Positions 9,001 to 12,000 of a stretch of 13,112 nucleotides of DNA are shown here, piece by piece. This DNA comes from a virus. Lineage: Duplodnaviria > Heunggongvirae > Uroviricota > Caudoviricetes. Position numbers: made by a program. Numbering within the stretch: the first letter of the stretch is position 1; each line of letters starts with the position of its first letter. The stretch is taken from the IMG/VR virus record IMGVR_UViG_2695420523_000015; one strand, written 5' to 3'.

Positions 9001-12000
9001 TTGAGCGTCATATTGACGGTTATTTATAGGTGAGTATCATTCTGGAACAGGCATTTTGGGTAACGTGTTCAGGATATTGCGTAGATACATTTCTGGAACG
9101 ATTCCTTTTCAGCAAGTACATCAGCGCATCACGTGGAAACATATAGGTATATTAAAAATGTATAAAATAAGGCTTCAGAAAAACATAACTATATTATTTA
9201 TTTTTATTGTCATGCTGTCATTTAGTTACTGGCTTGCTAATAGTTTTGGTATGAAGTGGGGCGTACTTGCAATTATTGGTTTTTTCTTGGGTTTTACATT
9301 GTCTTTTAGTCGATTTGGGATAGTTGCAGGTTGGAGAGACATGCTGACCATGAGCAACTCATACTATGTAAGGATTCACTTAATTACCATCGCTCTTGAG
9401 GTGGTTTTGTTTACACTCTGCCTGTCATTCAGCCATGCTTTTTTTGGCGGGAAGATGGTTGGGAATATTACAGCAATAAGTATCCCTTTTCTGGTGGGTG
9501 CGTTTGTTTTTGGTATTGGAATGCAAATTGCCGGAGCATGTGCGTCAGGAACACTCTATTGTTGTGGTGAGGGCCGTCCGGCATTTTGGTTTGTTTTGTG
9601 CTGCTATGGTATAGGGACATTAATTGGCAATCACTATAAGCCAGTGCTAAAACCAATTTTTCCCGGAGAAATTATTACCACCAAAGATATTACTGGCGGC
9701 TTGTGGTCAGGCATGTTATTAAGTCTTGTATTTATATTGATACTATACCTTGTTTTTTCATACATTGAGAAAAAACGCACCGGGAAAATATCTAAAATTA
9801 TCACCAGTGGTGGTTCTTTCTGGAAAGATAACAGATTTACTGTTCTTTCTGGCGGGTTAATTATAGCTGTACTGAACTCACTGGTTCTGGCAATGCACGG
9901 TTCAGCATGGACAATTACCGGAGCCATCTACGATACATCCTTGCATACTGCATCATTTCTTGGGGTTTTATCTGATAATTCTGTTATTACTAAACCATTA
10001 TTTCAGAATCCTATGGTTGGGATGTTCGTAGGTGGATTGCTGGGGGCTGCAATGGCTACTGTACTAACGGGAAAAAGGATCAAAGAGCCTCTGACTCGTG
10101 GAAGCATAATGGCAGGAATAACTGGTGGATTGCTTATGGGAACAGGAGGAGCGTATGCTTCCTGTAATTTGGGAGGATTCTTCGATGGAACTGCATCAGG
10201 AAGTTTACATGGATGGTTGTGGATGTTTATGGCTCTGGCTGGCAGCGTAATTGGGATAAATCTTCGGAGATTTTTTATTTGTTCACGCTGTTAAAAACAA
10301 ATAATTGAATCCTGACAGGAAACTGTGGGAAGAATTCTATTATCAGAAAGTAAAGCCCCCTTGTTTTAAATGTATACAAGGGGGATGCATGCTGAAAAAG
10401 CGTACTATCAAAAAACAGTAACTACGCGACGTAGTACTACCTACTCTAGAAAAATTAGCTGAGCAACCGACTATCTGAAATATACTCACAACCTACGAAA
10501 TTTTCGTATTTTAACCTCCGTCCGGTATATACCCCGAATTACGGGGATGTACGGAGTTACTGTACGGAGTTACCGTTGCCAATAATTATTCGCAAGGTGA
10601 TTGTTGATGCGTGATATTCAGCAGGTTCTGGAACGATGGGGAGCGTGGGCGGCAAATAATCGCGAGAATGTGACCTGGTCATCCGTTGCCGCAGGATTTA
10701 AGGGGATTATTCCGGCAAAGATAACATCACGCCCACAGTGCTGTGACGATGATGCGATGGTGATATGCGGGTGCATAGCCCGCCTTTACCGGAACAATCG
10801 CGATCTGCATGAGTTGCTGGTTGATTACTACGTGCGGGGGATGACGTTTATGTCACTGGCGCAAAAACATGAATGCTCTGATGGGACTATCGGAAAGCGG
10901 CTGCAAAAAGCTGAAGGTGTTATTGAAGGAATGCTGATGATGCTGGATGTTCGGCTGGAGATGGATCGGTATGTTGAGCGCGATTCAGTGACGGCATAAC
11001 GCGCATAAAAAAACCGCACTCATGAGGAAACTGCGGCGGAGAAGTCAGACTTGCCAATCAATCATGAAAAACGTAATCGCCTGATAATTATGCCACGAAG
11101 CACGGAAAAACAGTACAGGCGGTGAGATATAGCCCTCAAATGGAGGGAAAATCCCCTAAAGCGAGGGATATCCATCAAAACGAGAGAACATCCCCTAAAA
11201 TGGGGGATTTGCATCACGGAAAGGTGTCCATGACTGCTCTCCGCGCTATCGGGAGAGGCTTCTCGGCGGTTTTCGCTGAACGCATTCAACGTGATGTTGC
11301 CTCAAATACCCCCTATTGTTGCCTCAAATCGACATGATGTCGCCTCAATTTTTTTTGTGATTATTAATTAAATCAATACGTTAAGGCGTTTGAGGCAACT
11401 GAGGCGACACATTTTTCCTATATATATATAAAGCGTGTGAATGATCTGAATGGTGATAATCACCACGCAGACCATCCAGACAACCATAACGAACATCGTT
11501 ACAGTTGGAGCTTTTACCCCGTTGGGGGGGAAAGGTGCACATCTGGATCATCATTATGGTGATCGAGGGTATGGCTAAAATGACCACACCCCACCAGCTT
11601 CATAGAGGATAACCGGAAAAAATCCGGTAAATATTTGCCTGAGTAAGTCATCAAGCGCCTGCTAAATGTGTATAGAAATGTGTATAGGATTGATTTTAGA
11701 ACATGTAGAAATGGCTTTATTACTGGTGTCATGGCTTGTTGTTCTGTTCCCTTCGCCGCTCCAATTTATCTTCGCCTCATCAATCTGCCATTTTTGCTGT
11801 ATCTGATTTTCTATATTATCTTAATTCAATCGCTTCAGACTTTTCGCAATCGCCGTAATATTTCCCCATTTTGTTGTAAATAAAAAGCGTTTACGCAATG
11901 CAATCCTTTTGTAACAACCCAGGTAAAACACCTTATTTTCAAGTTGTTAAATAAGTGGTTATCTACGCTTTTAACAAACGATTGATGGAATATTTTATGA

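Follow-up and report, generated by a model that had tools for sequence, protein, structure and literature searches.

A predicted ectopic half of a DUF927-type replication origin between Q and attR in a satellite island of Escherichia coli

The repeat cluster and its rep-adjacent counterparts

The window analysed here, a stretch of 13,112 nucleotides listed as IMG/VR virus record IMGVR_UViG_2695420523_000015 (Caudoviricetes), is part of an Escherichia coli chromosome and holds a satellite island. The non-coding region between its antiterminator gene Q and its right attachment site (attR) carries a cluster of GTYGCCTCA repeats, the subject of this work. The genes of the window fit a Gram-negative phage-inducible chromosomal island (GN-PICI) or a P4-like satellite: Rha, two C4 RNAs and isrK, a primase/helicase-family protein, SSB, ProQ, copies of PerC, and Q, the gene zones of PICIs being as described (PMC10111431, PMC6092414). 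Islands and contigs used for comparison are designated by L numbers. The cluster is composed as follows.

11276–11448 (+): the whole duplicated unit, predicted to be an ectopic "unit 2" (right half) of a DUF927-Rep origin; bounds from blastn, alignment and metagenome homology boundaries
11296–11304, 11318–11326 and 11339–11347 (+): three direct GTYGCCTCA iterons with 22- and 21-bp spacing, about two helical turns
11348–11390: AT-rich spacer of 43 bp, 21% G+C against 47.5% in the whole window; presumed melting region of the origin unit
11391–11399 and 11400–11408 (−): two abutting inverted iterons with a 9-bp period

All five GTYGCCTCA copies lie within 11296–11408 and none was found elsewhere in the window. 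By chance 0.18 matches would be expected in 13.1 kb, and none of 200 shuffles of the window reached five. Count and shuffles thus bear out the three direct and two inverted copies, with 21–22 bp between the direct ones, reported in a preliminary description of this DNA; the spacer is AT-rich as stated there, but its length is 43 bp and not 39 bp. The three direct copies also have a longer 20-nt register in common. The unit includes a conserved tail, TTTTTCC-TATATATA-AAGCGTGTGAATGAT, given as TTTTTCC-TATATATA-AAGCG for the parent origins described below.

Positions 11276–11449 of the window align to 10595–10774 of the island of E. coli S1-KEN-03-A (L001; 89.6% identity in blastn, the difference being mostly indels) and to 11721–11899 of L003. 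In both islands the same 9-mer occurs 12–13 times in a block that begins 26 bp past the stop codon of a DUF927 gene and consists of two mirror units. Unit 1 has two or three tight repeats with a 9-bp period, about 55 bp of AT-rich DNA and four inverted repeats at 21 bp; unit 2 has three repeats at 21–22 bp, about 43 bp of AT-rich DNA, three tight inverted repeats and the conserved tail. The direct iterons of the window are identical, in position and sequence, to the three phased ones in the right half of this rep-adjacent origin. Tight inverted repeats number three to five in other copies of the unit and two in the window copy.

This organization is not restricted to the closest relatives. A repeat cluster was found directly 3' of the gene in all six distant DUF927 homologues; that of E. 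albertii shows only half of the layout, and the other five are on contigs titled Pseudomonas lundensis, Citrobacter youngae, Symbiopectobacterium (two contigs) and Sodalis. The clearest layouts (L006, L008 and L009) have the architecture of the parent origin with different 9-mers: two or three tight 9-bp repeats, about 55 bp of AT-rich DNA and three or four inverted repeats at 11 or 21 bp, followed by two or three repeats at 21 bp, about 45 bp of AT-rich DNA and three tight inverted repeats. The 9-mers of the distant origins include GTTGTACCA, GTTGGTTCA and GTRGTTTCA, among others. In total, six repeat motifs were counted among eight DUF927-adjacent origins, with the same layout in L001, L003, L006, L008 and L009, and a seventh motif, GGTGGATA, adjoins the DUF927 gene in L090 and L091.

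The origins of GN-PICIs and of Staphylococcus aureus pathogenicity islands (SaPIs) lie 3' of rep and consist of two opposed sets of iterons, at least two per side, flanking an AT-rich region; their iterons are Rep-specific (PMC6092414; PMC9371898). The window copy has the opposed iterons and the AT-rich region of such an origin (Pri-Rep-ori; Ubeda et al.; Fillol-Salom et al., 2018, PMC6092414), and lineage-specific iterons in a kept architecture are seen in the DUF927-adjacent origins. A position 3' of rep is found for the parent copies (L001, L003, L087 and L089) but not for the window copy. The latter is one half only of the mirror-duplicated parent, is located between Q and attR, and has no cognate initiator on the same element, the window being without a DUF927 gene.

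Because of the alignment to the rep-adjacent blocks and the match to the published SaPI/GN-PICI signature, we identify the cluster as half of a PICI-type origin. That it is an origin-derived iteron unit is almost certain. Judged from sequence comparison, what is copied here at an ectopic site is unit 2 of the SaPI/PICI-type origin used by one DUF927 Rep lineage. The preliminary description had named an iteron-type origin as one of two alternatives, and in related islands the other home of the motif is indeed an origin directly 3' of a replication gene. The kind of element is therefore known and its identity secure; the variant is unusual in being half, ectopic and orphan, with conserved iterons, next to iterons of the helper-phage type, and its function we infer.

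The other alternative named there was a site-specific recombination site, which would comprise either integrase/excisionase arm-type sites of attR or a resolvase/invertase site. Short repeats in both orientations about an AT-rich core, in non-coding DNA near an island end, would suit such a site, and genes for a tyrosine integrase and AlpA are present in this family of islands. The right end of the island was located as follows.

11741–11764 (+): attR core, an imperfect copy of the 3' end of tRNA-Gly (glyU) and right boundary of the island, from blastn against K-12 glyU and its downstream flank (the empty site) and from the island layout in L001, L003 and L012

The attR core is located 333 bp to the right of the GTYGCCTCA cluster, however, and L001 has no copy of the motif near attL or int. 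Arm-type sites of tyrosine integrases have their motif in both arms and travel with the integrase, but the identical integrase (WP_001379148.1) is encoded in L003, which lacks the ectopic unit. A second location of the motif had been expected to mark an element end; genome comparison placed it, the main home of the motif, in the rep-adjacent origin instead. In addition, another sequence, GTGTATAGNAATGYGTATAGGA, flanks both att ends and is a better arm-site candidate. A recombination site is therefore hardly credible, given the position of the cluster, its absence at attL and the same integrase without the unit. As had been noted, no gene of the window codes for the acting protein, but that protein would be a replication initiator rather than a recombinase.

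GTGTATAGNAATGYGTATAGGA is present at 11667–11688 of the window and at 3075–3096 and 16767–16788 of L001. L001, L003 and L012 each have one copy close to int, at a distance of about 115 bp from the glyU end, and another about 55 bp to the left of the attR core; L049 contains an extra 12-bp repeat of this motif. We regard these copies as candidate integrase arm-type sites. Beyond the attR core, about 73 bp (11777–11849) between ATTTATCTTCGCC and GTAATA are lacking at the glyU flank of K-12 and are bounded by short TCGCC repeats; they are possibly the scar of an earlier integration.

The resident replicon and the distribution of ectopic copies

The window has a replicon of its own.

3518–5341 (+): the island's own replication gene, P4-alpha-like, of the superfamily 3 helicase/primase family, 607 aa (Pfam D5_N, DUF5906, Pox_D5)
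5355–5583 (both strands): resident iteron cluster of twelve TGTTCACC-like 8-mers, directly 3' of the alpha-like gene
10601–10999 (+): antiterminator Q family gene, directly upstream of the non-coding region with the repeat cluster (Pfam Phage_antitermQ, E = 8e-52; RefSeq annotation in L001)

Many E. coli genomes contain the replication gene with 100% identity over 2 kb, under the annotation "DNA primase family protein". The 8-mer TGTTCACC is the one that bears the annotation "ori type 1 repeat" in ori and crr of phage P4. The 5355–5583 cluster is the island's own origin or crr equivalent. The GTYGCCTCA unit lies 5955 bp downstream of the end (5341) of the sole rep gene of the window, after the Q gene. 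No DUF927 gene was found in the window; the leftmost 2–3 kb of the island (int-alpA) are outside the window and hold no rep gene in relatives. Since the resident rep is of the D5_N/Pox_D5 type with P4 repeats and the motif is absent elsewhere in the window, the unit is an orphan here, in an island whose replicon is P4-alpha-like with TGTTCACC iterons.

Comparison with other islands points to a composite structure. Positions 78–7982 are 98–99% identical to the alpha-type island of strain OkiPb01701, and positions 10595–13023 are 99% identical to L001. The L001 island is placed between tRNA-Gly (glyU) and the GH15/ETT2 region and encodes a tyrosine integrase, AlpA, the Rha/Icd zone, DUF4222, the DUF927 protein, SSB and antiterminator Q. 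By its sequence matches, the window island is a recombinant whose left part resembles OkiPb01701 and whose right end resembles L001. The alpha-like gene (3518–3960) and the DUF927 rep gene (L001 8264–8704) have only the N-terminal ~148 residues of their products in common (45% identity), and alpha-type and DUF927-type replicons may exchange at this stretch. A search for a Rep specificity domain in the Reps of L001, L090 and L005 singled out no one region, divergence being spread over residues 51–150, 201–250 and the C-terminus.

We then considered the distribution of the unit, which is present in 14 of 5426 complete E. coli genomes. Among the carriers whose context was examined, L003, L087 and L089 have the unit in the rep-adjacent origin only; each has the cognate Rep and origin and no second unit. 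Ectopic copies fall into two types. Type A is that of the window, and three complete genomes carry it besides the main copy. A single island carries both the ectopic unit and, about 5.7 kb away, the cognate rep-adjacent origin in L001, in L011 and in the OAWU contig. Type B, in strains SCU-171 and 2013C-3033 (L090 and L091), is located about 780 bp past Q. In both of these strains the resident replicon is a DUF927 gene followed by a GGTGGATA-iteron origin, and the unit in the Q–attR region has GTTGCCTCA iterons and is the sole GTYGCCTCA copy in the genome. Type B is defined from the genomic context in these two strains; a third complete genome gave a near-identical match.

A pattern search of metagenomes returned 71 matches, mostly unrelated repeats, of which eight loci were true homologues. 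Of the metagenome contigs, L049/L029 has a type A copy in an island whose iteron tail is of the alpha type, L064 has a variant that is 93% identical and contains four tight repeats, and L027 has a type B copy; the main and ectopic copies occur together on one contig (L040, L078).

Types A and B have a common right junction, AAAGCGTGTGAATGATC, followed by a palindrome element, and because this junction is identical we derive both types from one ectopic ancestor.

These distributions bear on whether the unit could be a second cis site for the island's own Rep, as crr is in P4. P4 needs both ori and crr, separate clusters of one iteron; its crr (4291–4590) lies directly 3' of alpha, beside attP, and its ori at 9086–9809. 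The islands with both the ectopic unit and the cognate origin are of this form, P4 is likewise a satellite with more than one iteron cluster, the position of crr near attP resembles that of the ectopic unit near attR, and the replicon of the window uses the exact P4 8-mer TGTTCACC. However, the type 1 repeat of P4 is found in the 5355–5583 cluster and not in the GTYGCCTCA cluster, and no copy of GTYGCCTCA was detected in P4. Both P4 clusters are of the same iteron and are bound by the resident alpha protein, whereas the second cluster described here is foreign and mismatched in at least four island backgrounds. There is no co-variation: the resident iterons are of the TGTTCACC type in the window and L049 and of the GGTGGATA type in SCU-171 and 2013C-3033, and the ectopic unit has GTTGCCTCA in all of them. 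L003, L087 and L089, moreover, have the cognate Rep and origin and do without a second unit. Since the ectopic unit does not track the resident replicon, a crr-like role for the island's own Rep is ruled out for practical purposes.

Adjoining O iterons and the Q–attR backbone

Further features surround the unit.

11099–11448 (+): 350-bp module of O iterons, a 68-bp linker and the half origin, present or absent as a block in comparison with sibling backbones
11131–11207 (+): four 18-bp O iterons of the lambda/933W type, AGCCCTCAAATGGAGGGA, ATCCCCTAAAGCGAGGGA, ATCCATCAAAACGAGAGA and ATCCCCTAAAATGGGGGA, with ~20-bp phasing, outside any O gene
11446–11470: imperfect 25-bp palindrome CTGAATGGTGATAATCACCACGCAG, holding the perfect 13-mer GGTGATAATCACC at 11452–11464

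The O-iteron block shows 83–89% identity to phage origins that lie within O genes, namely those of 933W, H-19B, lambda and phage 21, and the homology ends at the edges of the array. Read by eye, the iterons of the window match the annotated "ori iteron 1–6" of 933W at 14–17 of 18 positions. Ori-lambda, which lies within gene O, combines four O iterons with an AT-rich region and a palindrome. The window array likewise has four 18-bp iterons with ~20-bp phasing, but it is outside an O gene and is flanked by 68 bp of G+C-rich DNA; the closest AT-rich stretch, about 140 bp away, belongs to the PICI-type unit. Both the window lineage and that of L064 show drift in their O iterons, and type B copies have none.

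The 350-bp segment is present in L001, L011, L049/L029, L050, L064 and L078. It is absent from OkiPb01701 (L002/L012) and L003, where 17–18 bp of unrelated sequence lie between the same flanks. A plasmid origin of the module was rejected, the O-iteron matches being the only ones found.

Directly past the Q stop codon, the minus strand at 11006–11030 can form a hairpin followed by seven U (−10.7 kcal/mol, with a z-score of only −1.4); relatives have a 7-bp perfect stem there. This structure looks like an intrinsic terminator that would act on transcription running leftward through the module. No sigma-70 promoter-like site was found in 10950–11960, two terminator-like matches were within chance expectation, and an Rfam E-value scan of 11000–11800 for structured RNA found nothing.

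The perfect palindrome GGTGATAATCACC is present where the preliminary description had placed it. Palindromes of 13 bp with 6+1+6 structure are not remarkable in this DNA, with four in the window against 3.2 ± 1.7 in shuffles. Alignment puts this one outside the copied unit, in a backbone common to islands without the unit, and we therefore rejected it as part of the origin unit. It varies as GGTCATAATGACC, with both arms changed (OkiPb01701 and L003), and as GGTCATAATCACC, with one arm changed (L064, L027 and L090). Lambdoid operators are 17 bp long, have outward half-sites of the TATCACCGC type, and are arranged in tandem sets that overlap promoters beside a repressor gene. The likeness to such operators that had been suggested did not hold, the half-sites (GGTGATA/ATCACC) abutting here with their TA ends inward, opposite to a lambda operator; the site is also single, with no promoter match in 10950–11960 and no adjacent repressor gene. 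Our guess is that the palindrome is a binding site for a dimeric protein.

Longer sibling backbones contain related second copies of the palindrome near TTACGAAAATTTCGTAA palindromes. The latter (two or three copies) occur together with GGTCAYRATGACY and AACCGGAAAAAATCCGGTA hairpins at about 15040–15300 of L012 (reverse complement) and in the Q–attR regions of L090, L091 and L064, and these repeats surround an opposite-strand gene for a 124-aa hypothetical protein. The window is deleted for the TTACGAAAATTTCGTAA-repeat stretch, with the join at 11574–11589. No phage match was obtained for this stretch of the longer backbones. A cos/pac or other phage-derived sequence in the Q–attR backbone was also rejected, since 11000–11100 and 11446–11770 gave no phage match.

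Some genes to the left of Q should be mentioned. A gene for a 412-aa Sulf_transp (YeeE/YedE-like) membrane protein with a TTG start occupies 9056–10294; it is probably cargo, as no blastn match to it was found in the sibling islands L001, L003 and OkiPb01701. PerC homologues are encoded at 6726–7028 and 7951–8253. Matches to C4 antisense RNA (2028–2115 and 2509–2596; 70–73 bits) and to isrK (1849–1926, at the gathering score) indicate a P4-type RNA immunity region; this region (1849–2596) overlaps a 507-aa open reading frame at 838–2361, whose L001 counterpart is annotated "Icd-like".

Conservation and possible function of the unit

To compare the iterons with the rest of the unit, we counted variable columns in 15 aligned copies: 3 of 54 iteron columns vary against 29 of 90 other columns (Fisher p = 9e-5). 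Between the main origin of L003 and the ectopic copy of L091 there are no changes in the 54 iteron positions and 18 in the 90 others (p = 1e-4). Likewise, ectopic types A and B differ at 0–1 of 54 iteron positions and 16–18 of 90 others, a non-iteron divergence of about 20%, and their spacers are of constant length despite many base differences. The conservation of the iterons together with the constant spacer length argues for a constraint on Rep binding and origin geometry.

On this sequence evidence, we lean slightly towards the unit being a selected, functional element that would bind a Rep protein in trans. In this model another island, co-resident or incoming, would supply a DUF927 Rep specific for GTTGCCTCA. 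Bound to the three phased iterons and to the opposed tight pair, this Rep would melt the 43-bp AT-rich spacer, and the host island would then be replicated in trans whenever the foreign Rep was expressed. Alternatively, the array would compete for the foreign Rep. An auxiliary origin activated in trans is a tentative proposal, and a decoy that soaks up foreign Rep seems a little less probable still. Both the placement of the unit and its iteron-specific conservation fit an initiator-titrating array; the full origin architecture is likewise conserved, and this kept geometry would slightly favour an origin over a pure decoy.

Iteron arrays outside plasmid origins, such as incA of P1 and incC of F, titrate or handcuff initiators. 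They too are initiator-binding repeats away from the working origin, but the plasmid control arrays bind the plasmid's own initiator, whereas the arrays of the window match initiators of other elements. No natural satellite-borne case of an initiator-decoy array was found in the literature.

Several observations weigh against a selected function. The ectopic copy was found in only 6 of 5426 complete E. coli genomes, and many sibling islands without it (such as L003 and OkiPb01701) do well. The cognate Rep is not encoded in the window and is apparently missing from the cell in three complete genomes; any benefit would therefore depend on incoming elements. The window copy is short of one 9-bp tight repeat in comparison with the main origins of L001 and L003. 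The window and L049 have a right-end block, reaching from the module as far as attR, of 100% identity next to Q regions of only 76–86% identity, and therefore much of the spread is hitch-hiking by recombination and not independent retention. Finally, iteron conservation could result from gene conversion by, or recent capture from, selected rep-adjacent origins. No ectopic GGTGGATA or TGTTCACC clusters were found in the Q–attR regions, and a general habit of parking foreign iterons there was rejected for this reason.

Taken together, such observations could also describe a relic. An L001-like island would have duplicated part of its own origin near attR, and recombination with a sibling at glyU would then have swapped the replication module, leaving a stranded copy that has no function and will decay. 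The mosaic of OkiPb01701-like and L001-like sequence in the window, the identical right-end block of L049 beside a diverged Q region, the rarity of ectopic copies, the deleted tight repeat and the lack of ectopic copies of other iteron types would all be accounted for in this way, and in the adjoining array O iteron 3 is degenerate in the window compared with L064. A relic does not readily explain, however, why the iterons are intact after about 20% spacer divergence between two types of one ectopic ancestor, why the AT-rich spacer has kept its length and composition, or why the unit persists in at least three replicon contexts. We consider a relic unlikely, although a serious competitor to a selected trans-Rep-binding element.

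The O iterons next to the unit extend the question to the whole module. Ectopic ori-lambda iterons block lambda replication through O binding in experiments (PMC4488673, PMC3349717), but those decoys were laboratory constructs on multicopy plasmids. It is speculation that the two adjoining arrays, both predicted to bind foreign initiators, share a common purpose. If so, the 350-bp module 11099–11448 might be a natural trap or piggy-back device for foreign initiators, namely O of a helper phage and Rep of a rival satellite, a proposal that we rate as rather improbable. The satellite would be replicated by initiators not its own, or the amplified module would titrate them and suppress the replication of the helper phage and of rival satellites. 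Such a device, if it exists, would be a DNA-only mechanism of interference or parasitism that has not been described for phage satellites.

PICI and SaPI origins have been described as rep-adjacent and strictly cognate, and here an intact minimal unit is found in islands with a different initiator. Should the unit be only a relic, it would still mark cleanly that satellites of the P4-alpha and DUF927 types, which share the glyU site, have swapped modules. If it is functional in trans, satellites would exploit or sabotage the initiators of each other and of their helper by means of DNA sites alone. This would bear on satellite incompatibility, on how islands with PerC genes are co-mobilised in pathogenic E. 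coli and on interference with the replication of Shiga toxin (Stx) phages.

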